Of a DNA stretch of 64,000 nt, positions 3,016-48,742 are shown in pieces. Below the pieces are notes generated by a model that searched no databases, was not told the origin of the DNA, and was given only the letters and a program-made list of their open reading frames with translations. Each line of letters begins with the position of its first letter. The stretch's first letter is position 1. The stretch is from an uncultured bacterium (GTDB taxonomy: Bacteria; Patescibacteriota; Saccharimonadia; UBA4664), in assembly GCA_963720265.1 (NCBI GenBank), contig CAVRET010000002.1, forward strand, positions 392,704-456,703, given 5' to 3'. The position numbers and the translations under genes are program-made.

Positions 3016-3090
<75 letters not shown>

Positions 3091-3492: not shown

Positions 3493-3780
3493 TTGCTGCC
3501 CAAGCAATATCATGAACTTTATCTCGACGTTGAATCTAAGTCCTCCCAGACTGCTAAATTTGCTAAGGCGATTGATAAAATCACTCCGGACATACTAGAC
3601 TACCTCACTCCGGGTAATATTACGGTGCCTCGTCTGCGTCACTTTGTTGGGATAGGGAAAGAGGAAATTGTAGACACCATCGTCAAACATAAGCGTCCTT
3701 ACATGCTCTGGAATCCGTTTATGACTGAGTTCCATGTTTACTTGATGGAGTGCCTGTCCGAAAAACTCTCGAACGATTAA
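3121..3780 (+). CDS. HD-domain phosphohydrolase (YfbR/5'-deoxynucleotidase-like)
   Basis: LAIHDIGELATGDE HD motif; 219 aa, the size of YfbR-like HD proteins. Confidence 0.65.
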   Translation: MSGMAKTSSMKKILGEVEFLLERYSKERRATTQPFLLEVVQQKFKDYRYNPADLLVRETLIEHVGSLPIVATALFPYIDDQDVDLGKALVMLAIHDIGELATGDEITFTKKSESAAAEQHEALKLLPKQYHELYLDVESKSSQTAKFAKAIDKITPDILDYLTPGNITVPRLRHFVGIGKEEIVDTIVKHKRPYMLWNPFMTEFHVYLMECLSEKLSND

Positions 3781-3789
3781 GTTGCTGAC

Positions 3790-5511
3790 CTAGTTCCATA
3801 CAATACTGGTAGTGTTGTTGGCCTCAGTACTGCTTAAGCCAGCGTACCAAGCGTGCAGTTCATCCCATACCTGGTTCCATTGAAACCCATCCAAGTCCAC
3901 CAATGTACGACTATTAGAACCGGAGCCAAATAAAAAGGCTTCCCCAAGCAACTTCGACCCTTTGGTCGATTTTTGCGTTTTAAGAGCTAGTTTTTGGGTA
4001 GCCAGTGCTTCTTTAACGTTTCGTAATGTGTTAAAAGGCTCAGCGGCCTTTCCATCGGCTTTAATCTCATCGTCCACCCGGTCAACCAATATCCGCTCGA
4101 AAATCGCCTGATTTATACGTTTGCGTATAATATCCGGTGCGACTTTGTAGGCCGAAGAGGCCTGCTTCATGAGCTCAATCGCAGCCTCTACGTGCTTCTC
4201 CAAGTCGCCAACATCCCTAGAGGCCATCTTAAGGGATGATTCGGCTTGCCGAATATCTTTGGCCAGTTGTTGCTGTTCTTGGGCTACCAAGTCGTCGGTA
4301 AGCTTGCCCGCGTAAAACAACTGCATGAGCTTATGCCGCGAGGCTGTCAGCTGTTGGATGCGTGTCGTTTGCCGCGTGACCTCTTTGTTTGCCGTCTCAC
4401 GGTCATCTTTGAGCAGCCCATGAATTGCCGCCTTAACATCCGAAGCCTCCTCCCCGGACAAATACACCCAACGATATTGCCGCTCAATGACCTGTTCTAC
4501 TTCGGCCACCGGCAAATATGGTAGGTCGCAGCTGGCATATTTCGTAGTCTTGCCGACGCAAAAGTAATACGGATACGTCTTACCGTAGGTGAAGCACAAC
4601 CGGAAGCCGCATCTCCCACAATATATTGTGCTTCTGAGGTAATGGTCGTATTTGCGTGACCTGTCCCCGGCCAGTTTTGCTTTCAGCATGTCCTGGACGC
4701 GCTGGAACAGATCTGGAGGCACGATTGGCTCATGCTTACCGTCATACGCTATCCCCCGGTATTTAAGCTTTCCGGCGTAGTACTCATTGCGCAGTAGCAC
4801 ATTGAGCCCACTCACCCCCAAACTTTTTGCCCCCGATGATTTATGCGGCCGTGCCGTTAGCCCTTTAGCATCGAGAATATCTACCAAATGCACCAGGGAG
4901 TACTGACCGGTGGCGTATTGCTCAAACGCAAACCGCACTAGCTCAGCCCGTTCGGGATCTAGCACCACGGTCTTTACCTCATGCCCTTCGACGATCTGGC
5001 GCGCGTTCACATAACCCAACGGCGCTTTATACGGCGTCCGGCCCAGCCGAGCTTTAATGGTCGCCCCTTTGATAACCTCATCGCTCAGATTATCTACATA
5101 GTATTCAGCCATATTCGCGAGCATACGCTCCATGAACTTGCCGGACGCCGAATCGTCAATGTGCTCAGACACGGATACCAGGCGCACGCCGTCCTCTAGA
5201 AGCGCATACTTCATGTTGGCATAGTCCCGTGTATTTCGGGCCAGGCGGTCGATCCGGTGAAAGATTGCCAGGTCAACATCTTTTGACTCGTGAACGAACT
5301 TCAGCATGGCTTGTAGTTCAGTTCGGTCGGCAAACTTTGCGCTTTCTCCCCGGTCCACGAACTCGCGCACCACTTCTGCTCCCAACTCCTCGGCCTTTTG
5401 GTGACAGGCTTCGCGCTGGGCCGGAATGCTGTATCCTTCCATGTCCAAGCCTTTTCGGGCTTGGTCGAGGGTTGAAACCCTTAAATATATAACGGCTTTC
5501 TTCATAGGCAC
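3790..5511 (-). CDS. Large serine recombinase (integrase)
   Basis: N-terminal resolvase catalytic domain (AVIYLRVSTLDQ...RIDRLARN), recombinase domain, Cys-containing zinc-ribbon (CGRCGFRLC...C..C) and a C-terminal coiled coil; 573 aa. Confidence 0.9.
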   Translation of the reverse strand: MPMKKAVIYLRVSTLDQARKGLDMEGYSIPAQREACHQKAEELGAEVVREFVDRGESAKFADRTELQAMLKFVHESKDVDLAIFHRIDRLARNTRDYANMKYALLEDGVRLVSVSEHIDDSASGKFMERMLANMAEYYVDNLSDEVIKGATIKARLGRTPYKAPLGYVNARQIVEGHEVKTVVLDPERAELVRFAFEQYATGQYSLVHLVDILDAKGLTARPHKSSGAKSLGVSGLNVLLRNEYYAGKLKYRGIAYDGKHEPIVPPDLFQRVQDMLKAKLAGDRSRKYDHYLRSTIYCGRCGFRLCFTYGKTYPYYFCVGKTTKYASCDLPYLPVAEVEQVIERQYRWVYLSGEEASDVKAAIHGLLKDDRETANKEVTRQTTRIQQLTASRHKLMQLFYAGKLTDDLVAQEQQQLAKDIRQAESSLKMASRDVGDLEKHVEAAIELMKQASSAYKVAPDIIRKRINQAIFERILVDRVDDEIKADGKAAEPFNTLRNVKEALATQKLALKTQKSTKGSKLLGEAFLFGSGSNSRTLVDLDGFQWNQVWDELHAWYAGLSSTEANNTTSIVWN

Positions 5512-5565
5512 GATTCTCCTGTTTAGTTCCGGAGAGGATACCAGATCTGAAGCGGATGGAAAGAG

Positions 5566-5922
5566 CTAATCCGGCCCAATCGTCTTATCTCGTGCATCAA
5601 ATAGGTAAATCTGCCGATCACCAGTAATAACGGTCGTGCCAAGCTGCCCGATTCGCAGGATGAGATCGTGGTACCGAGCACGTTTAGTCAGGTACCGGCC
5701 GCGGCTGGCAATGGCCAGGTCTATGGGTGTTTGCTCAAGATACGCCAGCATAACGTCAAGTCCTGGCCTCACTGCCGCGTCGGCCTTTACTCCGGCATCG
5801 ACAAACTCGGCCTCGATAACCGCACCGAGCTGAATAGCCATATCCTGACAAGCAATCCGTTGCTGCTCAATGGGCTCATCGTTTTTTATTGGCTGAACAC
5901 AAATATATAACCGCATGCACAA
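5566..5922 (-). CDS. Degenerate serine-recombinase (resolvase) catalytic-domain-like protein; the catalytic Ser position is not conserved
   Basis: RPGLDVMLAYLEQ..IDLAIASRGRYLTKRARYHDLILRIGQLGTTVITGD resembles resolvase core motifs. The N-terminus LYICVQP sits where IYxRVST is expected. Confidence 0.4.
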   Translation of the reverse strand: MCMRLYICVQPIKNDEPIEQQRIACQDMAIQLGAVIEAEFVDAGVKADAAVRPGLDVMLAYLEQTPIDLAIASRGRYLTKRARYHDLILRIGQLGTTVITGDRQIYLFDARDKTIGPD

Positions 5923-5982
5923 TACTAACCCTCGTTGTTGGAGGAGGAAGATACCAGAAAGTGGCTGAATTACAGAGGAACG

Positions 5983-6831
5983 TTACTTCTGGGCCAACCC
6001 CGACATCCGCTTAATGAGCAGCGCATATGTGTCCTCATGTTGTAGCAAAACCGTAAAGATCGAACCTAGGTCTTGGTATGGCGAGCGTTTGCGTACTTCT
6101 TTGCGAATATATTCTTCCATACGTTGCTCGCGGTCTTCGTCAAGCACTAAAAATACCACGCGCGGAAAGATGCCATCATAGTACTTCTGCTCCCGCCCTG
6201 TATGAAAATAGTCGCAGTACTGCTTAACTTTTTCACCAATCCGCTCTAGTCGCTCGGTTCCCATGTCGACCTCAATGAATCGGGGGAAGAGTTTGCCCTT
6301 GTCGGTGAGTACCACGAATGCGTCAGGCCGCAGTATCTGATCCTTGCCCCAAGAGAATCGTCGCCAACAATGCGGCTCAGCCACGAATTGCTTCAACGTG
6401 GGCGTCCACTCGGCATCAGATCGTTCCCGGTATGTGACGTATAGTTCGGTAACCGCCAGCCGGTGCTTAAGAAACGGTGCTTCTGGGTAGGGATCGCGCC
6501 AGTAATTAGGCTTATCCGGCATGGCAATCACCTGTCCTACTCGGTCGAGTGCGTAACAATACGGATCTGATCCACCGCCCAGGCCGCCGTTTGGTAATCG
6601 CCATCGGACAACTACTTCGAGGTCCTTTAGTTTCCGTAAGGCGATATTGCGCATCCGTACGCGAGACAAGGATGTGCCGGTAGCAAAGTGCAATCGCTCA
6701 ATCTGCTGACTGGTTGCAATTCTGACAAGTGCTAAGGCCTTGATGATATCTAGTGCCTTTGGTGACAGTTGCTGCCGAATGGTATAAACTCGGTTACCCG
6801 TGAGGCGTGAAGATTTAATCAAGATATACAC
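5983..6831 (-). CDS. Replication-relaxation (Replic_Relax) family protein
   Basis: Its N-terminal wHTH-like segment and overall 282-aa architecture resemble Replic_Relax proteins of actinobacterial integrative/plasmid elements. The assignment is by recall, not by search. Confidence 0.5.
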   Translation of the reverse strand: MYILIKSSRLTGNRVYTIRQQLSPKALDIIKALALVRIATSQQIERLHFATGTSLSRVRMRNIALRKLKDLEVVVRWRLPNGGLGGGSDPYCYALDRVGQVIAMPDKPNYWRDPYPEAPFLKHRLAVTELYVTYRERSDAEWTPTLKQFVAEPHCWRRFSWGKDQILRPDAFVVLTDKGKLFPRFIEVDMGTERLERIGEKVKQYCDYFHTGREQKYYDGIFPRVVFLVLDEDREQRMEEYIRKEVRKRSPYQDLGSIFTVLLQHEDTYALLIKRMSGLAQK

Positions 6832-7022
6832 CCTTTAGGGTTATATATAGTTGCTCCCACTATTTGACCTCGGATGCTTTTCCCAAGTCGAAACTGGCGT
6901 TCCGTCAACGAGGCGAGAGGAGGCACCATTGGAACACCTGATTGTAGCTTATTCCGCCCACCCGGAGCAGTTTCCAAATCGCTCAAGGCGACATGAGTGA
7001 TGGGTTGTTTTGTCATATTTGC

Positions 7023-7060
7023 CCCCTTTCGCAGTTGTGATGGATCACTGTAGCGATGAG
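7023..7060. repeat. Iteron-like 38-bp direct repeat, copy 1 (cccctttcgcagttgtgatggatcactgtagcgatgag) with internal IR GTGATggATCAC
   Basis: Imperfect direct repeat with 7474-7511. Confidence 0.6.
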
Positions 7061-7199
7061 GAGCGGATTAAGCAAGGGGCGCCTCCGACTCTGATTGTGG
7101 TGGTACAATTCGGGCAAGTATGGAAGTCATAGGCGCGTTGTCTAATATGTGAGGCTAAGTGGAATATACAAGGTTGTTACCCTTGGCAGAAGGTGAACT

Positions 7200-7505
7200 A
7201 TGGAAGGTTACGACAGATATACAATTTGGGGGCCAATTAACCAGCGGCGAGATGCGCAGCGAGGCAAGTATGCCGAGATAGAGCGCGCTCAAGCTGGTCT
7301 GAACAAACTTCGCACAAAGAATAGCCGCGAAATCGATCGAATAGCCCAAGAGGCTGATGCGCTGGCTGTTGAGTTTCACCGCTTGTACAACGAGGCGCAC
7401 GAAGCTTACGACAACGAAGATGGTGCCACAGACTTCCGAGTGTTGGATCGAATTGCTGAATATGCCATACGCACCCCCTTTCGCTCCGGTGATGGATCAC
7501 TGTAG
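7200..7505 (+). CDS. Hypothetical small charged/coiled-coil protein
   Basis: 101-aa ORF flanked by the iteron-like repeats. Confidence 0.35.
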   Translation: MEGYDRYTIWGPINQRRDAQRGKYAEIERAQAGLNKLRTKNSREIDRIAQEADALAVEFHRLYNEAHEAYDNEDGATDFRVLDRIAEYAIRTPFRSGDGSL

Positions 7506-7511
7506 CGGTGA
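7474..7511. repeat. Iteron-like 38-bp direct repeat, copy 2 (cccctttcgctccggtgatggatcactgtagcggtgaa)
   Basis: Matches 7023-7060 at about 31 of 38 positions, including the GTGATggATCAC palindrome. Confidence 0.6.
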
Positions 7512-7571
7512 AGTGGACATCAGGCGAGAGAGATTTACATTAGAGACAAGGACCAAAATCGACCAACCTGG

Positions 7572-7925
7572 CTATTTGCTTGCTGAAAGCGCCGCGCCGC
7601 CGTCAGAGCGAGTGCCTGGGGTGGGTAGTACATGCTGGGAGGTGAGCGTGATTGGGGCAAGCTCAGGGCTCCCGTGTGCCGCCATAGTCACTTCACCAAT
7701 AGACAATGAGAGTATCAGCGCTACAGATAAGGCGAAAATAGTGATGGCATATATACATACCAATCGTGGGAAATTAAATAGTTCAGGTACGCGGCTAGAG
7801 CGCTGGAGGTCATGTGTAGTCTCGATAATTACAATCTCTGGGTATGCCAAAGCTAATGCAATGGCCTTAACCAATTTTCGCTGGAGCGGATGCTGCTTGA
7901 GGTAAGGATAGATCGGGCTAGTCAT
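7572..7925 (-). CDS. Hypothetical membrane protein
   Basis: TM helix (LVCIYAITIFALSVALILSL); overlaps the next ORF by 8 nt. Confidence 0.35.
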   Translation of the reverse strand: MTSPIYPYLKQHPLQRKLVKAIALALAYPEIVIIETTHDLQRSSRVPELFNFPRLVCIYAITIFALSVALILSLSIGEVTMAAHGSPELAPITLTSQHVLPTPGTRSDGGAALSASK

Positions 7926-8289
7926 GGGTCTCCCTCCTTATTATCCATCCGAAAGAGTTCGTATGCATACTTAATATAAGAATCAAGCTTGCGACTAGAG
8001 AGCTCACGACTCCCGTTATAAATAACGGGACAGTACTCCAGTGCCACCACTGAACGGCCGCTTTGCCAATAATGCCAGCGATCGCGAACTTGAACAGGAT
8101 GGCGAGTATTAGAGAAAAAGCTCCCGTCAGGAAAGCCGACCATCGGAACGACAACTCGCTTCCGGCGAAAGCTTTGGTTAACTTGGCCGCCATGACAGCC
8201 AGCTCTGGCATTAGCACCAAGGCGCTCCCCACCATTGCCGGTATGATTTGGCTAATAACAGGAGAGCTCAGAAAGGCGCACGAAATCAT
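7918..8289 (-). CDS. Hypothetical multi-TM membrane protein
   Basis: Three or four predicted hydrophobic helices. Confidence 0.4.
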   Translation of the reverse strand: MISCAFLSSPVISQIIPAMVGSALVLMPELAVMAAKLTKAFAGSELSFRWSAFLTGAFSLILAILFKFAIAGIIGKAAVQWWHWSTVPLFITGVVSSLVASLILILSMHTNSFGWIIRRETHD

Positions 8290-8447
8290 ATCTGCTATTC
8301 TACGATGCGGATGTTTGCTTTGGGAAGCCTAGCCCCTACGCGTTCCCTCCCTCACGTATGCCGGTTTATCAAATCCTGGGCAAGGATGCACTGGTTAAGG
8401 CCACAAATTGAAATTAGCCGGTCTGTGTGACCGGCTAAAGTGCACTG

Positions 8448-8699
8448 TTATTTTGCTGCCATGTGTTTCCACCAATCAATGCTCGTTATATTGGGCAATT
8501 CTGCCCCGCGGTTAAGCGAAACAATGACGAGCTCTGGGAACCCAACGGCCACAAAAATAATTAACAGTATCAACTTAGAGACAGAGATCTGCCCATCTTG
8601 TTGTTTGTCCTTACTCATTTGGTAGCCCTCCTGTGGCGCAGTGGGCCCAGGCCCATCTCTGAGCCTTAAGTAAAGTATGAGAACATACTGTACGCACAA
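8448..8699 (-). CDS. Hypothetical small membrane protein
   Basis: Single TM (LILLIIFVAVGF). Confidence 0.25.
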   Translation of the reverse strand: MCVQYVLILYLRLRDGPGPTAPQEGYQMSKDKQQDGQISVSKLILLIIFVAVGFPELVIVSLNRGAELPNITSIDWWKHMAAK

Positions 8700-8758
8700 T
8701 ACCGTCTGCTGTCAAGGCAGATGGTCGGCCCAAATCCGGCGCCATAGGTGCGGATTGT

Positions 8759-10075
8759 CTATTCGGGCTTGGGCGATTGGCCCGTTGGTGCAGCTTTCTT
8801 GGTTTTCTTCCGGCCTTTTGGCCGATTACTTATCTCGGCGAACTCTTCGGCCGAATACTTCACCCATAGAGCGTTATTTCCAGCGTCAAGTCTAAAGGAA
8901 GTCCGGCTTTTGTCTTGGTGTGGCTCTTTGTAAATACTCCGCATAGCATCTAGCACGAAGTCCAGTATTTGCTCCTGGGCGTCGGGACTTGGGAAACGGC
9001 GGGCCAAGAGGTCTGTATATGTCTCCAAGGACAGGGCCATCGCGGCCTTAAATGCGTATCGCTCAGATAGGTTGCGTTCTTTCAGGTACTGACTCCACGC
9101 AAGGCCAAATAAAACCAATAAGGGCGTGAGGTAGACCAGGCGTGTTAGGGCTATCTGTTGCAGCGTCTGTGTTCGATGGGTGAAGGCAAGTATTACTGCG
9201 ATACCGACGATCAGGATTGCAATACCCACCACGCCATTGAGCCAGCTGCCAGACTGTCGCTCGACTGCTTTGCGTCGTTCGTCAAAGGCATTTGCGAGTC
9301 CGGTGTCGGTTGCGAGTTTGAGAACTTTTTCGATCTGTTCCCGTAGGTTCTCGCTCTCACTTTTTGTGTTGTTTATAGCTTCGGAGTCAGTCTGAGCCTG
9401 ATCAAGAAGCTTCTTTATTGCCACTACATCACCCTGGGACTGCCCTTGGAGTGCTCGAATGTCGTCGGTAAGTGATTTAGACTCAGCACGCAAAGCCGTT
9501 ACCTGATCAATAGCGGCCTGGAATCCTGTCGAGGGCTCGTCAATCTGTGCTTTGAGCTCGATGAAAGCTTGATAGCCCGCCCTCATTTCGCCAAGGTTGG
9601 CCTTAACTCCAGACAAGTCGGTTTCGATTTGTTCGACGAGTGTCGTCGAACGACTTGCTTCACCTGTAATCTGGCGGATTAGCTCCGCGGCCTTATTTAA
9701 CACCGCCTGTAATCCAGCACCCGGTTCATCTATCTGCATTTGGAGCTGTTGGAAAGCCGCAAATGCGCTCGCCATCGTGCCCGCGTGTGTCTGGACCTGA
9801 GACAAGGTGGTTTGGATTTCGGTTAATGCAGCGGTGGCTTGGGAACTCTGAGCGCGGATTTGGGCAATCTCTTGCTCCACTCCTTCCAACTTAGCTTCAG
9901 CGCCGATTGTTGGATCTTCAACACGCTTCAGTAGCCCCTCGGAACGAGACAGGTAGCCGTCAAGCTTGGTAGCGATTTCTTCGGCACGATCTAAATCGCT
10001 TTGTACCTGCTCAACTTTGGCGGCAAGCTGTTTACCGACTACGTCTAGAAGCGCCTTTAACTCTTTCTGATTCAT
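8759..10075 (-). CDS. Coiled-coil protein with internal sequence repeats and two C-proximal TM helices
   Basis: Repeated blocks F(Q/I)QL(Q/K)(M/A)QIDEP(G/S)(A/T)G(L/F)QA; hydrophobic segments GVVGIAILIVGIAVILAF and LVYLTPLLVLFGLAW. Confidence 0.55.
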   Translation of the reverse strand: MNQKELKALLDVVGKQLAAKVEQVQSDLDRAEEIATKLDGYLSRSEGLLKRVEDPTIGAEAKLEGVEQEIAQIRAQSSQATAALTEIQTTLSQVQTHAGTMASAFAAFQQLQMQIDEPGAGLQAVLNKAAELIRQITGEASRSTTLVEQIETDLSGVKANLGEMRAGYQAFIELKAQIDEPSTGFQAAIDQVTALRAESKSLTDDIRALQGQSQGDVVAIKKLLDQAQTDSEAINNTKSESENLREQIEKVLKLATDTGLANAFDERRKAVERQSGSWLNGVVGIAILIVGIAVILAFTHRTQTLQQIALTRLVYLTPLLVLFGLAWSQYLKERNLSERYAFKAAMALSLETYTDLLARRFPSPDAQEQILDFVLDAMRSIYKEPHQDKSRTSFRLDAGNNALWVKYSAEEFAEISNRPKGRKKTKKAAPTGQSPKPE

Positions 10076-10416
10076 TGGGCACCAGGATAATAGCTTCCGC
10101 CATAGTAGGCTCTAAATAGGCAATCATCAAGCTTAACCGATGTAACTTGATACTGCACGGGCTATGACGGCCGTGGAATACGGAGCTCGAAAATCTCACC
10201 TCTCCAAACCACCAGATCCCCGCCGCTTAACTGGCGCGCTTAGAACCTGCAGGGTGCACATTTTACGGACATGACCTAAGCCCTTTCTCGTTTTGCAATT
10301 ATCGACGCATCAAACTGCCTGAGAGTGGTCTAAAAAGTACCCCGATTTTACCATAAGGATTTTAATCCTCAACGCTCGCTGTTGATCCCAGATTACAGAA
10401 CCGCAGCTGTACCGTA

Positions 10417-10980
10417 ATGTTACGCTATAACTGGGATTCAATAATTAAACTCGTCATGTGGAAAAGACTAAACTCCAAAACACTGCTTAACCACCCACGA
10501 CTCGTAGTTGTAGAAGATGAAGTCGAATTACCAAACGGTCAGATTGTCGATTATGTAAGATTCGACGGAAATCGTAGGAGCGTAACGGTTATTTGCGTCG
10601 AGCGGGACAAAGTCCTCATTCAGGACGAATACTCATACCCACCTAATGAAGTACTCAAAGAGTTTCCCGGCGGTGGAATTGAAGAAAGCGAAACTCCCAA
10701 AGAAGCTGCCAAGCGCGAGCTTATCGAAGAATGTGGTCTGCTCGCCCACAACCTCACTGGGCTCGGCTGGTATTACATCAATAACCGTCGCAGTGCCGAG
10801 AAAATGTATGTATATCTTGCAGACAACGTCACTAAACACAGAAAAACCGGCGGCGATCCTGAGGAGAACGCCCGACAATCTTGGGTAACTACCAACGAGT
10901 TAAGTAGCATGATTGCCGGTGGCCACATCACCAACTACTCAGTGCTCGCAGCGTGGGCAATATACAAGAGCAAGCAATGA
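10417..10980 (+). CDS. NUDIX hydrolase (ADP-ribose pyrophosphatase-like)
   Basis: Nudix box GGGIEESETPKEAAKRELIEECG. Confidence 0.8.
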   Translation: MLRYNWDSIIKLVMWKRLNSKTLLNHPRLVVVEDEVELPNGQIVDYVRFDGNRRSVTVICVERDKVLIQDEYSYPPNEVLKEFPGGGIEESETPKEAAKRELIEECGLLAHNLTGLGWYYINNRRSAEKMYVYLADNVTKHRKTGGDPEENARQSWVTTNELSSMIAGGHITNYSVLAAWAIYKSKQ

Positions 10981-11786
10981 TAACCGAGATATCTCTTATT
11001 TCCCTAAACATTGCTGGCTTCCCATTCCCACATCACACTCATGCCAGAGTAGCGGCGTTTTGTAGGTCAATCAAATCTTCCGATGCAATAGTAATAAATC
11101 TTCAAGAAGTACATACGTATGCCTTACTTTGGCAGCTCCGTAGGCGCCTGCCGCAATTCCCACACATCAGCTACAATCTCGGAATGCTAGGTCCACGAGC
11201 CGGGCTCGTCACATTCTCGAGACTTCCGATTCAAAGCCAGGACTTCTTTGCGCTCGCGCCAGCCACTAGCGTGCTACCGCACAGTAAACAACCGCCAAGA
11301 GCCATGATGGAGAGCAAGCATAAAGGGGTGCTCATAACACGACTAGGCTCAATGATTATTATGAACGCCCACCTCAACCCCAATATGGATGGCGATTGGT
11401 CGCGGGATAATCGCTTCTATCCGGTACATAACGTCCAGCTCGAAGCAGTCAACAAACTGGTTAATATGAAGTTCCCTGATTCAGTAATAATTCTGAGTGG
11501 GGACTTTAACTTGGCGAAAGACTGCGACTTATTTCCTCAGTTTGTGAATGACGGTAACTGGAATGACACCTTTTCCAGCGATCTGACGCCAACCTTCCAC
11601 TCTGAGTTTCTTAAACCCGGTAGAACCCCACACTGCATAGACTATGTATTATTCCGTGACCCAAAGAACAAATTAAAAGTTGAACAAACCGCATTCATGG
11701 CTGCAGATAAGATCAAGCTCAGAAACGGTGTCGAGTCGTATATCTCAGATCACCTCGGGTTATACGCCAAGCTGACAGGACTCTAG
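10953..11786 (+). CDS. Endonuclease/exonuclease/phosphatase (EEP) family protein
   Basis: INLQEVH, SGDFNL and SDHLGLYAKL motifs typical of the EEP fold; overlaps the NUDIX gene by 28 nt, so they form an operon. Confidence 0.7.
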   Translation: MGNIQEQAMITEISLISLNIAGFPFPHHTHARVAAFCRSIKSSDAIVINLQEVHTYALLWQLRRRLPQFPHISYNLGMLGPRAGLVTFSRLPIQSQDFFALAPATSVLPHSKQPPRAMMESKHKGVLITRLGSMIIMNAHLNPNMDGDWSRDNRFYPVHNVQLEAVNKLVNMKFPDSVIILSGDFNLAKDCDLFPQFVNDGNWNDTFSSDLTPTFHSEFLKPGRTPHCIDYVLFRDPKNKLKVEQTAFMAADKIKLRNGVESYISDHLGLYAKLTGL

Positions 11787-11857
11787 TGGGATTCGGGGAT
11801 CACCCCGGAGGCATTCGCACGTAGCCTCCAGGGTGATCCCGGCATGAGTTAAAGCCC

Positions 11858-12601
11858 CTACCGAGACCTGAATAGCTTCAACTCAAGGAACTTCGCGATC
11901 TGGACGCCCAGGTACTCGACCCAGCCGGGCACATGCTCGCGCGTCTTCGGAAGGATCCACTTGAAGAAAATATACACTGGGTACTTCCGCCTTCGGGCAC
12001 GGATGAACCGGTGGAACTCACGGTACTCTGGTACGTCGTGGAACCCTGCCCCAGACGCCATGATGAGCTTGGCCAGCCGATGTGCAACCGGCCAGTCCTT
12101 GTCTCGCATTACGCCGCCGTTTGTCACGAACGTGTGATATAGCGTATTAAGCTCAAGCGTCACGATCGTGTGCCCGAAAAAGCTCCGCTCTACTGGCCGG
12201 AAGAGGCTTGTTGGTACGGGCATACGAAGATTCCGATGAGTCAGGTACGAGAGCTTCTCATCGGGCCGGAAGTCGATGTGCACGGCTGACGGATGGATCT
12301 CGAGATTAATCGAGAAACCCTCCGCTGTAGCCAGCGCCCTCCGGTAAGGTTCGACACGGGGAAGATCAGCGTGGGGTATTAGCAGATCCACGTCAGGCAC
12401 CTGTTGATGGACGAGCCTTGCTCCCGGTCGGCCGAATCGAGCGAGTGCCGGGTCGTTAAGATACGAACTCGTGGCAAGGCTGCCGATAATTCGGTACTCG
12501 ATGCCGTGCTCTCGGAACCATGCTTGTATCTCATCAAGCTTCGCCAGGAAGAGCACTCGCAGCTCAGCTGGTGAAGCGTCCTCCAACGGTCGTTTTGGCA
12601 T
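11858..12601 (-). CDS. Hypothetical protein with a weak nucleotidyltransferase-fold-like motif (GS...DVDLLI)
   Basis: IIGSLATS....PDVDLLIPH resembles a Pol-beta NTase hG[GS]..D[hD] motif, but the spacing is atypical. Confidence 0.35.
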   Translation of the reverse strand: MPKRPLEDASPAELRVLFLAKLDEIQAWFREHGIEYRIIGSLATSSYLNDPALARFGRPGARLVHQQVPDVDLLIPHADLPRVEPYRRALATAEGFSINLEIHPSAVHIDFRPDEKLSYLTHRNLRMPVPTSLFRPVERSFFGHTIVTLELNTLYHTFVTNGGVMRDKDWPVAHRLAKLIMASGAGFHDVPEYREFHRFIRARRRKYPVYIFFKWILPKTREHVPGWVEYLGVQIAKFLELKLFRSR

Positions 12602-12627
12602 AATTATGTCTCTCCGCTCGGATGGGG

Positions 12628-13764
12628 TCAGCTTTGCCTGATCGACCGGCGCATGTCTTGCAGTAGGAATGTTTCCAACTGAGAGACGAGTGACGGGTGG
12701 TTTGTAGCGATGCCGACCTCTGACGTTCTACCGGCTAGGAAGCCGTTGAAGATGTTAGACCCGTAAAGGCCCCAGTCATCTGCCAGAAGTCCCTTGGCAT
12801 GTGTCATGCCGCCGTTTTCGCGGAACCGGAACACATGAACTCCGGCCGCTCCCATACGGTCAAAGTCGGCCTCGGTTGGCGCTAGGACTCGTCGGTTGTT
12901 ATGCAAAGGGGCTATCACCGACACATCAGCTCGCTGCTCGCGTGCCGACTCGCTAAGGACTCCTTGCATGCCAGAGCCCCACAAGTACGCTGACTCGATG
13001 ATTACCCGTCGCTGGGCCCGCCCAATAAAGAACTGGACGAGCGGCAAGATGAGTGATCGCCGGTATGAATCTGTGACTACGAGCCCGTCGCTATACGGCA
13101 CGATCCTACCTGGGTTGTACTCTGCCCACGTACGGTCGATGTCGTCTTTCAGTACGAGCACCACGTCACCGGTCATCTTGACCATGAAATCGTTCCAGGA
13201 GGCGTTATGCTCGGAGAGATTGATTCCGCCCGCATAGGCTACGGCTAGCTCTGGTGCGTCGCCGTCAATCACGACGATCTTCTTGTGGTTTCTCCTCAGA
13301 GCCCGATACTTCATGCGGCCAAGAGGATTAACCATGCGCACTTCAATACCCTCTCGGCGCATAAAGTCGATCAAGTGGAGGGTTGCCCTCCACTCCTCCA
13401 GGGTTTCCCGATAACGCCACGGCTGGAGGCGAGCGAGCAGTAGATACTCGTCGTTGTGGCTAAGGTTGATATAATCGTCGATGCCGAAACGGACTGGAAT
13501 ACCCGATCCTCTCGCCTCCATAAGGGCATGAGCCACCGGGAGTCCGACAGCGTCGGCCTCGAAAGTATGAAACTGGAGGTCGATTCGCGAGGAAGCTTGG
13601 CTAATCCCCGGAATCAGGTCTGCCAGGAATGTCTCGGCACTCGGCAGAAGCTGGTAGGTGCAAAGATTAGCCGGCGTTGCGGCATTGTGTGCGGCCAGAA
13701 GCGAAGCATACTCACCAACCGAAACGACGGTAACCGCACGTGCTCTTCGCTGAGTCATTATCAA
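12628..13764 (-). CDS. Phospholipase D (HKD) superfamily protein; cardiolipin-synthase/Nuc-like
   Basis: Two HKD motifs: NHKKIVVIDG...GGINLSEHN and THAKGLLADDWGLYGSNIFN. Confidence 0.8.
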   Translation of the reverse strand: MIMTQRRARAVTVVSVGEYASLLAAHNAATPANLCTYQLLPSAETFLADLIPGISQASSRIDLQFHTFEADAVGLPVAHALMEARGSGIPVRFGIDDYINLSHNDEYLLLARLQPWRYRETLEEWRATLHLIDFMRREGIEVRMVNPLGRMKYRALRRNHKKIVVIDGDAPELAVAYAGGINLSEHNASWNDFMVKMTGDVVLVLKDDIDRTWAEYNPGRIVPYSDGLVVTDSYRRSLILPLVQFFIGRAQRRVIIESAYLWGSGMQGVLSESAREQRADVSVIAPLHNNRRVLAPTEADFDRMGAAGVHVFRFRENGGMTHAKGLLADDWGLYGSNIFNGFLAGRTSEVGIATNHPSLVSQLETFLLQDMRRSIRQS

Positions 13765-13904
13765 GCTCCAAAAGCTTACTAAAAATAGCTAGACTGCTGC
13801 CTAGCTACCATCGTGTAAGTTCCAGATGCTCTTTTAGCATAAACCGCATAATTGGGCAAACGAAAAGCAATTATACCCGCCGATTAATTTAATGAACGCT
13901 AACA

Positions 13905-14261
13905 CTATGCACGCAAACTGGTTGCTCGAAGAGCAATATAGCGACCGCGATTGTCTCGAAGCTGAGTGGCAATATTTGGCCCGCGCGACCGCAGCTTTAC
14001 ACCGCTAACAGTTAACAATTCGGCGAGCCGCTCACGATTTATCCCGCTTAAACCGGCCAGCTCCCGAAGCGTTGTACCGGACTGGTAGGCGAGGACAAGT
14101 CTATTTAGCTCGGCCGCGCTGAGCTGCCTAGTTCGGTTCCGGAGCCGTATATGACGCCTTCTAACTACTGGCCACGATTCCCAGCCTTGTAGGTCCTGGT
14201 TAAGTTTGGCGCAAACTTCATATGCCTCGGCTTTCTGATAGCTCTCACGCAGAACCACCAA
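13905..14261 (-). CDS. Small HTH-domain protein, paralog A (putative element-end regulator or directionality factor); TTG start
   Basis: TLRELAGLSGINRERLAELL is an HTH-like segment. It is a paralog of 18276-18647, and its first ~45 nt recur at 14661-14704. Confidence 0.5.
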   Translation of the reverse strand: MVVLRESYQKAEAYEVCAKLNQDLQGWESWPVVRRRHIRLRNRTRQLSAAELNRLVLAYQSGTTLRELAGLSGINRERLAELLTVSGVKLRSRGPNIATQLRDNRGRYIALRATSLRA

Positions 14262-14658
14262 AGTACTTATGCTTATTTCCTGCTGTTATAATGTCTGGCA
14301 TGGCAAAGACATCATCGATGAAGAAGATACTGGGTGAGGTGGAGTTTTTGCTTGAGCGATATTCAAAGGAACGCCGAGCCACCACCCAGCCGTTTCTTCT
14401 CGAAGTCGTTCAACAAAAGTTTAAGGATTATCGGTATAATCCAGCAGACCTGCTAGTGCGTGAAACCCTAATCGAGCACGTGGGCTCTCTCCCGATAGTG
14501 GCAACGGCTCTCTTCCCGTATATCGATACCAGGATTGGACTTGGGTAAGGCGCTGTTATGCTTGCGTTCCGATATCGGCGAGCATGCCACCGGAGACGAG
14601 ATTACCTTTACCAAGAAGTCAGAGTCAGCAGCAGCTGAGCAACACGAAGCTCTCAAAT
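14255..14658 (+). repeat. Right (degraded) copy of the ~400-bp direct repeat
   Basis: Aligns to 3085-3492 at an offset of 11170. It carries 4 single-nt deletions and several substitutions after position ~14527. Confidence 0.9.
14291..14658 (+). pseudogene. Frameshifted 5' fragment of an HD-domain gene (duplicate of the 3121-3780 gene)
   Basis: Identical N-terminal 79 codons, then frameshifts; truncated at codon ~124. Confidence 0.85.
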
Positions 14659-14660
14659 AG

Positions 14661-14704
14661 CTAGGCCTCGGCGTTCTGATAGCTCTCACGCAGAACCACC
14701 AAAG
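14661..14704 (-). repeat. Third, orphan copy of the 5' end of the small HTH gene (encodes only ..VVLRESYQNAEA then a stop)
   Basis: ggcctcggcgttctgatagctctcacgcagaaccaccaaag matches 14224-14263 and 18576-18616. Confidence 0.7.
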
Positions 14705-14762
14705 TAGTTATGCTTATATCAGAATGACAGATTACGACCGACCTAAGGCTTATACTTAAAGC

Positions 14763-15374
14763 ATGGGCAAAGTAGGCCGAAATGATCCATGCCCGTGCGG
14801 CAGTGGAAAGAAGTTCAAGAAGTGTCATTATGGCGACTATGACAGTACTTTCTCACTCGAAGATACAAAACTGCCAGTCGTGACCTGCAGCGTAAATGAC
14901 GACTTTCAAGACTCTGGCTTAGCCGTCGTTTTTGTAGCTAGGCAGCATAATAACGGTCATAATTTGAACATTGTCTGCTATCTTTGCGACATATTTTGTC
15001 TCGGAGTTAAGAACGTTAGCAAGTACCCATCCTCGTCTATTCGCACCGTCGAAACCCTGCAAGAGCGCTATGATCTCGATTTTATGGACATCGATTATCA
15101 GGACGCACGGGACTTGATTTTAGGTAGCGTTCGCTACGCTGGCAATCTTGGGTTTCAACCGCATCGGGACTGGGAGCGAGCCGAGCACTTCATTGAGTCT
15201 GATCAGCCCTTCGATTCTAACCGCTTCTCTTACGGATCTGATGGACGGCCACTCTATGTCGCCGGACCTGATGACGATTATGATTACATCATGTCGACTT
15301 TGAGAGAATGCGTCGGAGAAGGTAGCTTTGAGTACGTAATCGAACCCGGTATGGGCTTTGATACAAAGATTTAA
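14763..15374 (+). CDS. SEC-C motif domain protein
   Basis: N-terminal [16 protein letters not shown] (SEC-C metal-binding motif); the rest is uncharacterised. Confidence 0.65.
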
Positions 15375-17572
15375 AATAAGCTCATTTGATCTGTGCTAAT
15401 CCGCCCCTTCTTGCTAGTGGCTGATTGTCGAGCGATGCCAAGACTACGATATGTCCGCAATCGCTTAAAATACATTGCTTTCAACATTGGTACCCTTAAG
15501 TCGCTGTAATCGTATACAAAAGTTTGCTGGGGTGATGCCGCCGCACTTCGCTGCAATCGACCAACGTACTGAACCACCTTGCCCTTATACGTGAAGGGGA
15601 AAACTAAAAACAAATGGGTCAGTTCCGGCCAGTCAAACCCTTCACCGATGAGCTTCCCAGTAGATATCAGGAGTTTAAAACGCTCCTGAGTAATACGCCT
15701 TCGCAGGCCTGCTCGCTCTTTTAGGGTGTTCTTCCCGGTCACAATTGCGGCATGCGTGCCTTTAGACCGCTGCCTGACCAGATCCAGCAGTATCTGACAG
15801 TGCTCCACTCGCTCGGTTAATACAAGGCACTTTGCGCCAGCCTCCAGCGCAGCTGCAATGTCATCAGCAATCATCTCATTGCGCTCGTTGTCAGCGATTA
15901 GTAGAGATGCTACCTCGTGAAATTCAGAGTTCCTTCGGCCAGCCAGTTCAAACTCAGTGGTCTTCACGACAAGAGACATAGTGGTAATTGGCTCCTGAGA
16001 AAGCTTCGAATCGCCTATCGGTTGGGTCTTGCTTGATACGCGTAAAATTGACCCAATGTAAAACTCCAGCATCCGGTCTAACTGATCTCGCCTCATGGCG
16101 GTTGCAGTTAGCCCCAGTACGTATTTCGCTTCGAGCAACTTGAGCACATTCGTAAATGTTCTGGCGGGTACGTGGTGGCATTCATCGATTATCACGAAAC
16201 CAAATGTGCTGCGGATATCCTCTACGCCGCGCCTATTGAGCGTCTGATAAGAGGCTAGCGTAACTTTACGACCAAGCTGCCATTTGCCTTCCCCAATGAT
16301 GCCAAGATCATCTTCTTTAAGGTCAAAGCACTCGCGAATACGTGTGGCCCATTGTTCAAGGAGTTCTCGAGTATGAACAATGATCAAAGTCTTCTGTCGT
16401 AGCTTACTCATACAGTAAAGGCCCACAATCGTCTTGCCGAACCCGGGGCCAGCTTCCAGGATCGATCTAGGTTTAGCAAGCAGTTCATTCGCAGCTCGTC
16501 GTTGCTCCGGCCGAAGCTTTATGTTCGATTTGACCCGCGTGACAGGTACAATCGCCTGTTGATCGTTGAAGGTTAGCTTAACCTTAGTCTTTTCGGCAAA
16601 CCCACTGATTTCTGTTAAAAATCCAGCTGGAATCAAGATGCCATCCTGTCCTTTTTCTATTGTGGTTATGTAGCGGGGTATGGCATGGGTTGAATAACCG
16701 TTACGCTGGCTCTCCAGGTACTTAGGGTTAGGAAAATTGAGCCGCGATTTTAAGAACTTATAGAGCTCTGCTGGCAACGAAGTCGCCGGTATATATATCT
16801 GGTTACTTAGTACAAGTTCAGCGTGAGATCCGTCAGCAGGGCTATATGCCAGATCTTCGTACTTGTCACATACGTCAGGATCAGCTTGCGGCTTCTCGGC
16901 AGTCGTGTCCGGTGGAGCCAATATGCGGTCTATAGTTAGTTCATCAACTTTAGTCATTGCTTTCAGGATGCTCCACTGGTCCGGATAAGCCTCCCCACGT
17001 TCATCTATAAAAGCTGCCCTACCGGTTGTGATCAGCTCCCCTTGCAGGGGTAGAGCGATCAAATTCCCGAATCCCCGACCAGTATGAAAATCCTGGCTAG
17101 GGAACAATCTATCGTAACTTTGCCGTCGCGTTATGCCCGCCCGCTCAAGTAGCAGTTGCCCCAACTGCCTTGCCTTGGCGCCAGGAATGGTTGTTTGAAA
17201 GAAGATCCATACATGGGCACCATCACCAGATCGTGACCGCTCAACGTAAGCCGGTATGGAATACCTTGCCGCGCTTTTACAAAACCGGTCGGCTTCGTGT
17301 AGCCAGTCGCCGTGGTCAAAGTCCGCAGCCATGAAATACGTAGAGTTTTCCTTAAGAAGGGGATATATGCCGATAGTAACACTGCCGTTCAGGTGAGCCG
17401 CGATAGTGGCATCTGTGAGACCTGCGGGCTGCTTGTTAATAGTGAACACCGGAGCGTATCCGATTCTATTAGCCGCTGGGTTTTGCCAAAGTTTGGCATA
17501 CACGTCAGTGCGCCCACGAAACAGTGAACGGTATAAGCTAATTTGCTCTGGGGTAATAACGCCAGTGTTCAA
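15371..17572 (-). CDS. Primase-polymerase (PrimPol/AEP-like) N-terminal domain fused to an SF2 DExH helicase
   Basis: N-terminal motifs AADFDHGDW and [13 protein letters not shown] (AEP catalytic motifs). Helicase motifs: Walker [16 protein letters not shown], and a C-terminal helicase domain. Confidence 0.7.
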
Positions 17573-17675
17573 TAAGATATCCTAAGCCAAAATACAGATA
17601 CATATTATACCCAAAAGTCTATCCAACATATCTGGTAAATGGTATAATTAGACTAATTAAACGGTAGCAGCGGGT

Positions 17676-17870
17676 ATGGCAGCACGAGATTGGCGAAAGC
17701 TTTACCAACAATATCGAGGACAGTGGGTCGCTCTCAAAGAAGATGAGATCACCGTAATTGCTAGTGGCTCAACGCTAAAAGGAGTACTCGCTGAGGCGGC
17801 AAAGCTTAGCTATCCCGATCCGCCTCGCGTAACCAAAATGCCATCTGACCTGCGGGTCTTCGTAGGTTAA
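17676..17870 (+). CDS. Small protein (64 aa), possibly DUF5678-like; partner of the downstream protease
   Basis: Stops 4 nt before the start of the next ORF; no catalytic motif. Confidence 0.4.
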   Translation: MAARDWRKLYQQYRGQWVALKEDEITVIASGSTLKGVLAEAAKLSYPDPPRVTKMPSDLRVFVG

Positions 17871-17874
17871 CGGC

Positions 17875-18261
17875 TTGAAGTTTAAATACGTCCAGTATTC
17901 GGGTACGGTCGTTCGTCCTGTTATTCCAATACGAGTGAGCAATGGCAAGCAGACAATAGCCTATGATGTGCTTGTCGATTCCGGTGCGGACATTAATGAC
18001 TTCGATGCAGAACTAGCTGAAGTGCTCGGTATTGATTTGAAAACTGGCGTACCGGCCGAGGTCATGGGACCAACTGGCTATCCTGCGGAAGTGTATATTC
18101 ACCCCGTTAAGCTAACTGTCGGCGAGCATACATTTACAGCTCAAGTTGCATTTATGCCGACATCAAATCCATTTGGGCTTGCCGGGCAACGTGGTTTCTT
18201 CGACCAATTTGAGATCAAGTTTAATTTACGTGAGCAAGAAGTAGAGCTTACAAAACTTTAA
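17875..18261 (+). CDS. Retropepsin-like (clan AA) aspartic protease
   Basis: LVDSGADIN is a D(S/T)GA catalytic motif; the 128-aa size is typical of retropepsin-like domains. Confidence 0.65.
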   Translation: MKFKYVQYSGTVVRPVIPIRVSNGKQTIAYDVLVDSGADINDFDAELAEVLGIDLKTGVPAEVMGPTGYPAEVYIHPVKLTVGEHTFTAQVAFMPTSNPFGLAGQRGFFDQFEIKFNLREQEVELTKL

Positions 18262-18275
18262 GGCCGTAGCGTTAA

Positions 18276-18647
18276 TTAGGGCGCCCCCAAATATCTGCCT
18301 TTCTCATCCCGAGGTTGGATGGAGCTATTTGGTCCGCGAGGCCGTAATTCGACTCTAGAGGCCCGAATCAGCAATGCTAACCGTTCCCGATTGATACCAA
18401 ATTCTTGAGTCAATTCTCGTAATGTACGCCCAGCCCGGTAGGCGTCAGTTGCTTTGGCGAGTGTCTCTTCCGCCAGATGCACCGAACGACGTCTCACGCG
18501 TTTAGCTCCACAAGTTCGTGCGCACCAGTTACTCCGGTCTTCCAGATCTTGGCTCAACTTTGTATATTGAGCATAGGCTTCTGCGTTCTGATAGCTCTCA
18601 CGCAGGACCACCAAAGAATTATCAGTGTTCCTCACCCAGCGGCTCAT
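18276..18647 (-). CDS. Small HTH-domain protein, paralog B
   Basis: LVVLRESYQNAEAY...TLRELTQEFGINRERLALLI; paralog of 13905-14261. Confidence 0.5.
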   Translation of the reverse strand: MSRWVRNTDNSLVVLRESYQNAEAYAQYTKLSQDLEDRSNWCARTCGAKRVRRRSVHLAEETLAKATDAYRAGRTLRELTQEFGINRERLALLIRASRVELRPRGPNSSIQPRDEKGRYLGAP

Positions 18648-19038
18648 CCAAAATCCGCGCCAGCATCTTGGCCACCCGGTCGTTTGAATCTTGCAACGAG
18701 CGGTTTTTGGCTAGCAGTTTGCGCTCAGCCTGTCGCAGCCGGTGGATCACCCAGGTCATCACCAGGCCATCAATCAGATAGATGAGAATCTGCAATATCC
18801 CGGCCCAATGCACGTCCGGGTAATATTCCGGGTGGATAAAGATGTAATCGATCAGCCCCGCCGACAGCACGAGCGACAAAATGGCCGGTCCCGTGCCCAG
18901 AAACGCCGCTGACAGAATAATCGCCAAATAGTACAACAGCAGTGGCGTGTGAATGCTCAGCGCCGGCACGTAATATTTCACCATCGTAATGGCTGATACG
19001 AGCAGGAACGATAAGACATACGCAGCCACTTTTCGCAT
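18622..19038 (-). CDS. DUF4118-like membrane domain protein (KdpD-type sensor domain, stand-alone)
   Basis: Three TM helices followed by a charged tail, a pattern resembling DUF4118. Confidence 0.45.
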   Translation of the reverse strand: MRKVAAYVLSFLLVSAITMVKYYVPALSIHTPLLLYYLAIILSAAFLGTGPAILSLVLSAGLIDYIFIHPEYYPDVHWAGILQILIYLIDGLVMTWVIHRLRQAERKLLAKNRSLQDSNDRVAKMLARILDEPLGEEH

Positions 19039-19099
19039 ATGCTGTCATCGTCTGCTTCCAATCTGATATGCGGCTGAAACCGGGCCGTTCTCCCGGCTA

Positions 19100-48590: not shown

Positions 48591-48667
48591 GGGCCCATAG
48601 CTCAGTTGGTTAGAGCAGCTGCCTTTTAAGCAGCGTGTCGTGGGTTCGAGTCCCACTGGGCCCTCCA
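48591..48667 (+). tRNA. tRNA-Lys (anticodon TTT) with encoded CCA
   Basis: Acceptor gggccca/tgggccc, anticodon arm gctgc-cuUUUaa-gcagc, T-arm gtggg-ttcgagt-cccac. Confidence 0.9.
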
Positions 48668-48742
48668 GGAATTATTCTTCATAAACCAACTTGCGCCACC
48701 GACCTGCGTCGAGGGCAAGTCAGTGGCGCGAAAGTGAGGCAA

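Follow-up and report, generated by a model that had tools for sequence, protein, structure and literature searches.

Elements with large serine recombinases (LSRs) of the Ccr type are stacked at one chromosomal site in staphylococcal cassette chromosome mec (SCCmec), where units lacking ccr are bounded by the same site sequence. Recombinase-less units that are bounded by attachment (att) sequences are known as cis-mobilisable elements (CIMEs) and pseudo-SCC elements. Canonical LSRs, according to the textbook rules, use neither attL nor attR as partners of attP. Integrative genetic elements that lie in tandem at tRNA genes have been described (PMC7192596), and in the SSV-type tyrosine integrases of archaea, called "suicidal", attP lies inside the open reading frame (ORF) of int, so that integration splits the gene (PMC7253208, PMC8371274). 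Integration of serine recombinases into tRNA genes is called rare in a report that describes eight actinomycete integrative/conjugative elements (AICEs) of Mycobacterium at tRNA-Leu (PMC3218068). Here we analyse a 15.5-kb island at a tRNA-Met gene of an uncultured bacterium of the Saccharimonadia. The island lies in a 64-kb stretch of contig CAVRET010000002.1, which is called the window below and to which all positions given without a contig name refer. It is a tandem array of three stacked units, E1, E2 and E3; at least three units are involved, and E1 is itself composite. With a probability of about 70%, we view the island as an array of units stacked at the tRNA-Met attachment site of an LSR, in which the small helix-turn-helix (HTH) ORFs at the unit ends are the C-terminal tail of the integrase gene, detached by integration.

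The 26-mer CTGATAGCTCTCACGCAGRACCACCA is present three times on the plus strand of the window, at 14235-14260, 14676-14701 and 18588-18613. The number of matches stays at three when up to three mismatches are allowed, whereas 100 dinucleotide shuffles gave none. A repeat finder extended the three copies (Table 1), with 93% and 71% identity over 59 nt. The original prediction had placed these copies at the start of one HTH gene (HTH-A), in an orphan remnant of about 13 codons and at the start of a second HTH gene (HTH-B), and the coordinates match. The two HTH proteins, which it had called paralogs, are 49% identical over their full length. All three copies terminate in CCACCA (14255-14260, 14696-14701 and 18608-18613), and the tRNA-Met gene ends in the same six nucleotides (3085-3090). 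An additional junction-like core, at 3897-3902, falls within the 3' end of the recombinase gene.

Rightward of copy 1, the sequence is the same as that which follows the tRNA (from 3091 on), except for the first base. To the right of copy 2 follows a sequence related to TAGTACTTATGCTTATTTCC, and to the right of copy 3 unrelated flank DNA. The similarity of the flanking DNA stops exactly at CCACCA in at least nine junctions from different samples, one of them being the tRNA end. The junction at copy 3 (J3) was also found in L001, an independent assembly of the same sample (related contigs are designated by L numbers), and attP-like junctions are present in L015, L025 and L027, which stem from other samples. 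In the window, att-type junctions lie at 3090/3091, 14260/14261, 14701/14702 and 18613/18614. The GC content falls from 0.58 at 3090/3091, amounts to 0.47-0.52 within the island (3091-18613) versus 0.58-0.60 in both flanks, and climbs to 0.54 and then to 0.60 to the right of copy 3. The tRNA junction and the junctions at the motif copies have CCACCA plus 2-5 nt in common, and no long direct repeat of the target sequence is present. A Pfam scan of the ORFs revealed a single recombinase in the island, the LSR adjoining the tRNA. We consider it likely that the motif forms the left arm on the element side (P arm) of an LSR attachment site, with integration taking place at the CCA end of tRNA-Met. 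Between LSR-type units and E3-type units, the P arms show no systematic difference. It had been proposed earlier that the region is a probable tandem array, the pattern expected for serial insertions at one attB. The array and the att-type nature of the motif copies are supported, but attB is the 3' CCA end of tRNA-Met and not an HTH gene.

We also considered that the P arm is a decayed or mimicked 3' half of the tRNA (58% identity by eye). This was rejected, since 68, 696 and 502 of 2000 shuffles reached the score when CCACCA was kept fixed. A scan of positions 13700-19200 for promoters and terminators gave fewer sites than shuffles, the Rfam scan detected only tRNA, and the motif is absent from the viral contigs that were searched.

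The units are discrete, because they occur alone or stacked in other contigs. In L002 (identical to L016) and L015 the identical tRNA-Met is followed by an LSR gene, Replic_Relax, methyltransferases, GreA-like, CYTH and dTMP kinase genes and a motif-bearing HTH ORF, and then by other DNA. In L019/L020 the same tRNA-Met is followed by a 6.1-kb block without recombinase, which ends with SEC-C, AEP primase-helicase, DUF5678, aspartyl protease, DUF6155 and a motif-bearing HTH ORF. In those other contigs that extend to the tRNA end (L002/L015 and L019/L020), the units sit at the identical tRNA-Met, and together with the window three different sequences are found directly after its CCACCA. L025 shows a flank, then HTH, protease, DUF5678, helicase and SEC-C, and then HTH, small ORFs, FUR, protease, Replic_Relax and further genes. 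It is a second, independent array, in which an LSR-type unit is followed by an E3-type unit. The E3-type gene set is bounded by the same arms in other contexts (L019-L021, L025, L026), its proteins are 75-92% identical at the amino acid level, and the E3-type left end is homologous between the window and L025. As had been anticipated, the downstream segment varies independently of the rest: E3-type units are found without E1-type units (L019/L020), LSR-type units without E3-type units (L015/L002), and both are stacked again in L025. An HTH ORF is located at the unit end in every contig that is long enough to show the flanks. In the window as well as in the related contigs its 5' end holds the att arm, as the original prediction had stated for the units of the window.

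Pairwise identity by codon position was determined in a codon alignment of seven of the HTH genes. Third-position identity was 0.83 in codons 1-13 versus 0.36-0.38 in codons 41-118, which demonstrates constraint on the arm at the DNA level. Second positions are kept at ~0.70 in codons 41-118, and this argues for purifying selection on the HTH protein. An insertion of 4 nt has altered the frame in the L019 lineage, where the conserved DNA TGGTGGTTCTGC is read as WWFC, not as VVL. The 5' motif of the HTH genes thus acts as a DNA site. The family is very small: a profile search against 1.84 billion representatives revealed four full-length clusters, and five members were found among 5.8 billion proteins. 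A word-index search with HTH-A gave no matches. Pfam gave only a weak, sub-threshold match to HTH_58, no functional match was obtained in PHROGs and NCBIfam, and the best E-value against PDB sequences was not below 0.055. Foldseek returned only generic HTH folds with E > 0.4 for the AlphaFold model (pLDDT 67; 84-88 in the HTH core). Taken together, the searches and the model show only a generic three-helix HTH, and no similarity to known excisionases (Xis) or recombination directionality factors (RDFs) was found. In long proteins of up to 1242 aa (P0005-P0078), the HTH module (Y.aG.tLrEla..fgi.Re.v...l...Gv.lR.rG) is repeated 3-12 times in tandem; P0005 (836 aa) has 11 copies.

The relation between the HTH ORFs and the recombinase becomes apparent in L002. 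There the LSR ORF passes, after ...SSNKLT-LV, into the complement of the tRNA and extends 44 nt into tRNA-Met. When the LSR and HTH ORFs of L002 were connected in silico at the core that they share, as they would be in an excised circle, an uninterrupted ORF of 647 aa resulted (...SSNKLTLVVLRESYQ...). To the right of the L002 junction, a 57-nt stretch is identical to the 3' end of the window LSR gene at 48 of 57 positions (~84%) and encodes ETQKSARGSKLLGDANFF versus KTQKSTKGSKLLGEAFLF. This relic of an LSR 3' end is in frame with the HTH. Since this junction represents a natural attP-like join, L002 is itself a tandem.

With the 647-aa sequence as query, naturally fused homologues were found: P0206 (657 aa, 97% coverage) and P0155 (624 aa, 96%). 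Comparison of the HTH family to P0206 by hhalign gave a probability of 95.4% and an E-value of 1.8e-8; the 99 aligned columns begin at the conserved N(S/T)LV boundary. The match to P0155 was weaker (30%, E 5e-4). Read in tRNA orientation, the DNA of the two at this boundary is CACCA/ATGTATTATCATCAGAAC and CACCA/ATGAAGCTTCTTCAGAAC. This is the same arm as CCACCA/GTGTAAGCTTATTAGAAC in L002 and CCACCA/ATGTACGACTATTAGAAC in the window (3897-3920), the common pattern being CACCA/ATG.A...CAGAAC. In L027 a fused ORF is located at a unit junction within another array, and a second, stand-alone HTH copy (85% identical) follows 1.7 kb further. All three core domains of the LSR (catalytic, recombinase and zinc ribbon) lie upstream of the split.

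The LSR of the window is 82% identical to that of L002, and the context of the catalytic serine, YLRVSTLDQ, is visible in the alignment. It reached 107.7 bits with the NCBIfam model CcrB, for which the cut-off is 900, and is therefore not a Ccr recombinase. Its last ~35 codons cross a fossil junction at 3902/3903, and because the ORF reads through this junction, the LSR is frozen in the split form.

Based on these comparisons we propose the following course of events. In the excised form, the recombinase ORF would cross attP and continue in frame into the HTH, so that an LSR-HTH protein of ~650 aa could be made. Upon integration this ORF would be cut at its core sequence, CCACCA (coding strand: TGGTGG). 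Beside the tRNA would then lie the LSR, with a few codons read into the tRNA, and the HTH module would occupy the distal end of the element, its TTG or GTG start right at the junction. That the arm coincides with the first ~11 HTH codons would follow from the recombinase ORF spanning attP. Each motif copy would mark the distal end of one unit, and the empty site would read tRNA-Met...CCACCA, followed by ...AATTATCAGTG. The anatomy of the junctions, the separate occurrence of the units, the constraint on the arm as DNA, the continuous frame and the fused homologues are observed; that the LSR is the catalyst, that the excised state yields the fused protein and the way in which the units were stacked are inferred.

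Reading into the tRNA is not restricted to the subfamily of the window. Among the 120 best-scoring LSR homologues, 83 have G[FLIVM]EP, which is the translation of the complement of the tRNA T-arm, within their last 45 residues. At the DNA level, entry of the LSR ORF was found for tRNA-Met (L002), tRNA-Val (L030) and tRNA-Ala (L031). These cases, together with the 83 homologues, indicate that integration at tRNA CCA ends with an ORF that crosses the site is common in this clade. The detached piece was found to be the HTH in the window subfamily and in the lineages of P0206 and P0155 only. Relatives of the LSR in GTDB representative genomes are 24-34% identical and mostly stem from metagenome-assembled genomes of Saccharibacteria/Patescibacteria; none of these genomes contains an ORF of the HTH family. 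L030 (contig ERR11523669_424380) is from the same sample as the window and carries a second LSR element of the clade, at tRNA-Val with the junction GCCCACCA/AAAGTTTATGTTCAGAACC. Its genes (FtsK/TraD-like, Replic_Relax, N6/N4 methyltransferase, HTH_3) are syntenic with the element in L027 that bears the fused LSR-HTH.

The features of the island are listed in Table 1.

Table 1. Features of the tRNA-Met island and its borders in the 64-kb window
Feature	Position	Strand	Remarks
tRNA-Met (CAT)	3016..3090	+	ARAGORN, Rfam; its CCACCA is the left half of attB; left island boundary
E1	3091..14260		composite of HD module and L002-type LSR element ending in HTH-A
HD module	3091..3902	+	left arm TAGTACTTATGCTTATTTCC, HD-domain gene 3121/3130-3780 (Pfam HD_3), decayed tRNA-Met 3' fragment ~3874-3902
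LSR, 573 aa	3790..5511	-	Pfam Resolvase, Recombinase, Zn_ribbon_recom (PF00239, PF07508, PF13408); toward tRNA
Resolvase-N fragment, 118 aa	5566-5922	-	N-terminal part of resolvase catalytic domain only; between LSR and Replic_Relax
Replic_Relax	5983-6831	-	Pfam; 77% identical to counterpart beside L015 LSR
Coiled-coil protein	8759-10075	-	E1 body
NUDIX	10417-10980	+	E1 body; Pfam
EEP nuclease/phosphatase	10953-11786	+	E1 body; Pfam
PLD-like protein	12628-13764	-	E1 body; Pfam (5566..13764 also holds unassigned ORFs)
HTH-A ORF, 118 aa	13905..14261	-	right end of E1; TTG/GTG start at junction; motif copy 1 is its 5' end
Motif copy 1, likely P arm	14221..14263	+	forms attP-like E1/E2 junction with next arm, 14261-14280
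E2	14261..14701		0.44-kb relic: frame-shifted 5' part of HD gene (14261-14662), 13 HTH codons, motif copy 2
Motif copy 2	14662..14704	+
E3	14702..18613		recombinase-less, both att arms kept
SEC-C-motif protein	14763-15374	+	E3; Pfam
AEP primase-polymerase + SF2 helicase	15371-17572	-	E3; Pfam, PADLOC
DUF5678	17676-17870	+	E3; Pfam
Aspartyl protease	17875-18261	+	E3; Pfam
HTH-B ORF	18276-18614	-	18276-18647 from upstream ATG; motif copy 3 is its 5' end
Motif copy 3, likely P arm of E3	18574..18616	+	right island boundary; attR-type junction, flank AAGAATTATCAGTG
DUF4118 membrane-protein gene	18622..19038	-	Pfam; right flank, outside the element

The HD module at the left end of E1 has a left arm that is similar to native tRNA trailers. 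The alignment of the window with attL of L002 extends 19 nt into the tRNA, with 14 of 19 positions identical, and this fragment ends in the core at 3897-3902. A complete pseudo-tRNA at 3818-3902 was considered and rejected, since beyond the last ~19-29 nt the similarity was reached by 488 of 3000 shuffles. An extended -10 element, TGTTATAAT, lies at 3114-3132 directly before the HD gene, with the ATG at 3130 just 7 nt on, which suggests that the transcript of the HD gene is leaderless. The same extended -10 sequence is also present ahead of the damaged HD copy in E2, at 14284-14302. The resolvase-N ORF of E1 is kept at the same position in L015 (67% identical over 107 aa); only 61 aa of it were annotated there by the gene caller. 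Within Replic_Relax, TGCCATCATAGTACTTCTGCT at 6171-6191 (coding for QKYYDGIF) matches the junction of tRNA and left arm at 3083-3103 in 19 of 21 positions. By our own estimate ~6e-5 such matches are expected in the window, and the homologous protein of L002 reads QERFDGLF at this place. E1 also contains a direct repeat of 66 nt (7011-7076 and 7463-7528), the copies of which are 73% identical, lie 452 nt apart and share the conserved core CCCCCTTTCGC...GTGATGGATCACTGTAGCG.

E2 is the remnant of a closely related E1-like copy, deleted from inside the HD gene to codon 13 of the HTH gene. Motif copy 2 encodes 13 codons and a stop (14661-14702, minus strand), and this relic matches HTH N-termini in tblastn. 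Positions 14255-14662 match 3085-3497 at 97-99%, with 5 substitutions and five 1-nt deletions, and the orphan remnant is fused to this truncated HD repeat as originally described. The five deletions are bunched in ~55 nt (14520-14580), and the other ~350 nt are almost identical.

E3 was presumably moved by an LSR that was supplied in trans, or together with a neighbouring unit. Its primase domain belongs to the Pfam class "TOTE conflict system", and PADLOC matched it to a CRISPR-associated PrimPol; on account of these two assignments, E3 could be a replication module or defence cargo.

Beyond the DUF4118 gene, the right flank contains a 282-aa gene and an alpha/beta-hydrolase gene whose counterparts beside the L015 array show 66% and 74% identity; the hosts of the window and of L015 are therefore related. 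A contig scan with the neighbouring GT2 protein found no close relatives of the host in the genome collection, and exact-protein look-ups of the GT2 protein and of HTH-A gave no match.

Several observations weigh against the proposed splitting and stacking. The candidate crossover points lie within CCACCA or up to ~9 nt 3' of it, and the junction pairs disagree on the offset; L019 has GCAATTATT on both sides. A dyad scan of the reconstructed attP and attB, made with no shuffle control, yielded 10-15 of 25 matches at several centres, none of them clearly highest. The top attB centres fall in the stems of the tRNA itself, and the scan gave nothing above noise. Neither in the window (3874-3902) nor in L019 (5177-5194) can the tRNA 3' fragments stem from an exchange at CCA or beyond it. 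In L019 the fragment agrees with tRNA-Met in 18 of 18 positions, its edge in the T-loop is sharp, and TAGAACTTATGCTTAG and the SEC-C gene come next. Capture of flanking DNA by excision at a secondary site would be a plausible origin of such internal fragments. In E1 the HD module separates the LSR from the left arm of the unit, and E1 is therefore unable to form the LSR-HTH fusion. Since a second E1-like copy (E2) exists although E1 cannot fuse, fusion was not obligatory for the origin of this second copy. In L031, the more distant member of the clade at tRNA-Ala, no HTH module was found within 10 kb. Neither an empty tRNA-Met site nor an excised circle was found, and the genome collection holds no close relative of the host. 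Finally, serial insertion is unexplained by the textbook rules for LSRs, because attL and attR are barred as partners.

The tRNA trailers are relevant to the last point. Native trailers resemble the left arms of the units as well as the flanks to the right of the arrays. In L015, tRNA-Met2 is followed by AAGATCTTATGCTTAAG (15719-15733) and tRNA-Ile by ATGTTTTTATGCTTAAT (16409-16425). In the window, the trailer (48668-48690) of tRNA-Lys (48591-48667) reads GGAATTATTCTTCAT and is similar to the flanks AAGAATTATCAG, TTGAATTATTGCC and GCAATTATT. This likeness makes it hard to separate element-derived from host-derived sequence on the right-hand side, which adds to the objections. It may, on the other hand, account for the stacking: with trailer-like right-hand arms, attL would resemble attB and attR would resemble attP. 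Short conserved trailers were also noted in themselves, NNGNNCTTATGCTTA after tRNA-Met2 and tRNA-Ile of L015, and GGAATTATTC after tRNA-Lys of the window. The tRNA-Ile (L015 16333-16408) has the anticodon TAT (UAU), an uncommon isoacceptor in bacteria, and lies beside two tRNA-Met genes upstream of the array.

Instead of being a recombinase tail, the HTH ORFs might be free-standing Xis or RDF genes that overlap the att arm, the frame continuity with the LSR being incidental. They encode small DNA-binding proteins within elements and are under purifying selection even in units without an LSR. They have their own TTG, GTG or ATG start at the junction, E1 has retained HTH-A although fusion is impossible there, and small RDFs are known for some LSRs. 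An excisionase- or RDF-like role had also been suggested in the original prediction. We consider it unlikely, because no similarity to Xis or RDF families was found in Pfam, PHROGs, PDB sequences or folds, because the frame is continuous in three divergent lineages, and because the HTH is homologous end to end to the C-terminal ~105 residues of the fused LSR, starting exactly at the junction. A C-terminal module of the LSR explains the ORFs better. The two readings are compatible, and the detached module could still modulate directionality, so that an RDF-like activity is possible. Artificial fusions of Int and RDF have been made (PMC12286644).

The remaining alternatives dispense with the LSR or with the array itself. 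Segmental duplication or gene conversion of paralogous chromosomal HTH genes would require no site-specific recombination, and the 410 nt shared by E1 and E2 at 97-99% could be produced by homologous recombination between a circle and an integrated copy, or by unequal crossing-over. This origin is very unlikely for the array, given that similarity ends exactly at CCACCA in the at least nine junctions from different samples, including the tRNA end, that the units are found separately in other contigs, that the GC content of the island is unlike that of the host, and that an HTH family of about five members in 5.8 billion proteins is located at unit ends wherever flanks are visible. Nor do we give much credit to insertion by a tyrosine-type integrase, encoded elsewhere in the genome, which would act within the tRNA (T-loop) and displace tRNA 3' fragments. 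Such enzymes are the usual agents at tRNA genes according to PMC4383910, and partial tRNA-Met 3' ends do lie at two internal boundaries (3874-3902 of the window and 5177-5194 of L019). These fragments are confined to internal boundaries, however, and the far ends carry the HTH arm, which is not tRNA-like beyond CCACCA in the shuffle tests. Moreover, 83 of the 120 homologues have an LSR ORF that abuts or enters the tRNA, and no tyrosine recombinase was found in the scanned ORFs of the window island and of L002, or in the precomputed Pfam annotation of the genes of L015, L019/L020, L025 and L026. An assembly artefact that mixed integrated and excised reads could also mimic a tandem, and an independent short-read assembly of the sample indeed breaks in the repeated HD region (L029 ends ~314 nt past the LSR). 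It is the least credible of these explanations: 5 substitutions and five 1-nt deletions set the second HD copy apart from the first, a distinct HTH relic adjoins it, J3 is reproduced in L001, and analogous attP-like junctions are present in L015, L025 and L027.

If the HTH ORFs are detached recombinase tails, a more far-reaching and tentative idea follows, which we regard as less probable than not. LSRs of this clade might alter their own domain composition with the integration state. The LSR-HTH protein of the excised form would be competent for integration, and the integrated element would produce a truncated LSR and a free HTH. Directionality would then be determined by the split, with no need for a conventional RDF, and the free HTH would serve as a detachable subunit or RDF. 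Recombinase-less units that keep the HTH, such as E3, could be satellites that are mobilised and stacked by the same enzyme, and they would persist as such because the att arm lies inside the HTH ORF. Whether the integration state changes the composition of the enzyme is directly testable with two proteins and two 50-bp sites. In genome engineering, serine integrases are limited in practice mainly by the control of directionality. For annotation, a simple rule emerges: where an orphan small HTH ORF beside an island starts with TGGTGG, a recombinase gene may have its other half there, and the ORF marks the distal end of the island.

An array at a tRNA gene is ordinary. A split serine recombinase, stacking by an LSR and a large related clade whose members read into tRNA genes are not described in the literature searched, and the full texts searched contained no description of a serine recombinase ORF that spans attP and sheds a C-terminal HTH. 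Arrays made by serine recombinases call for an explanation, because the textbook rules forbid re-use of attL and attR. As in the accretion of ICEs (integrative conjugative elements) and CIMEs in streptococci and in tRNA arrays (PMC7192596), unrelated att-bounded units lie side by side in the window. E3, recombinase-less with att arms, is like a cis-mobilisable element, and E1 is a merged composite. The described cases of accretion use tyrosine integrases, however, and regenerate the core at both ends, whereas the window has an LSR and a shared core of ~6 nt. By their description, the Mycobacterium AICEs resemble the elements reported here in combining serine recombinases at tRNA genes with Replic_Relax or FtsK-like modules, as in L027 and L030; the accessible part of the source (PMC3218068) makes no mention of an ORF spanning attP or of a detached HTH. 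Although integration into tRNA genes is called rare in that source, 83 of the 120 best-scoring homologues of our LSR read into tRNA genes.

Islands of the SCCmec type share with the window the stacking of serine-recombinase elements at a single site and the presence of recombinase-less units. They differ in that the enzyme of the window is not Ccr, in that its target is the CCA end of tRNA-Met rather than rlmH, and in that its att arm lies in an ORF that continues the recombinase gene. In this last respect the window resembles the SSV-type integrases, in which the ORF of the recombinase likewise contains the site, a tRNA gene is targeted and the two gene halves end up at opposite ends of the element. 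The enzyme of the window is nevertheless a serine and not a tyrosine recombinase, its catalytic, recombinase and zinc-ribbon domains stay intact with only the HTH detached, and the detached piece keeps a start codon, is under purifying selection and is not a pseudogene.

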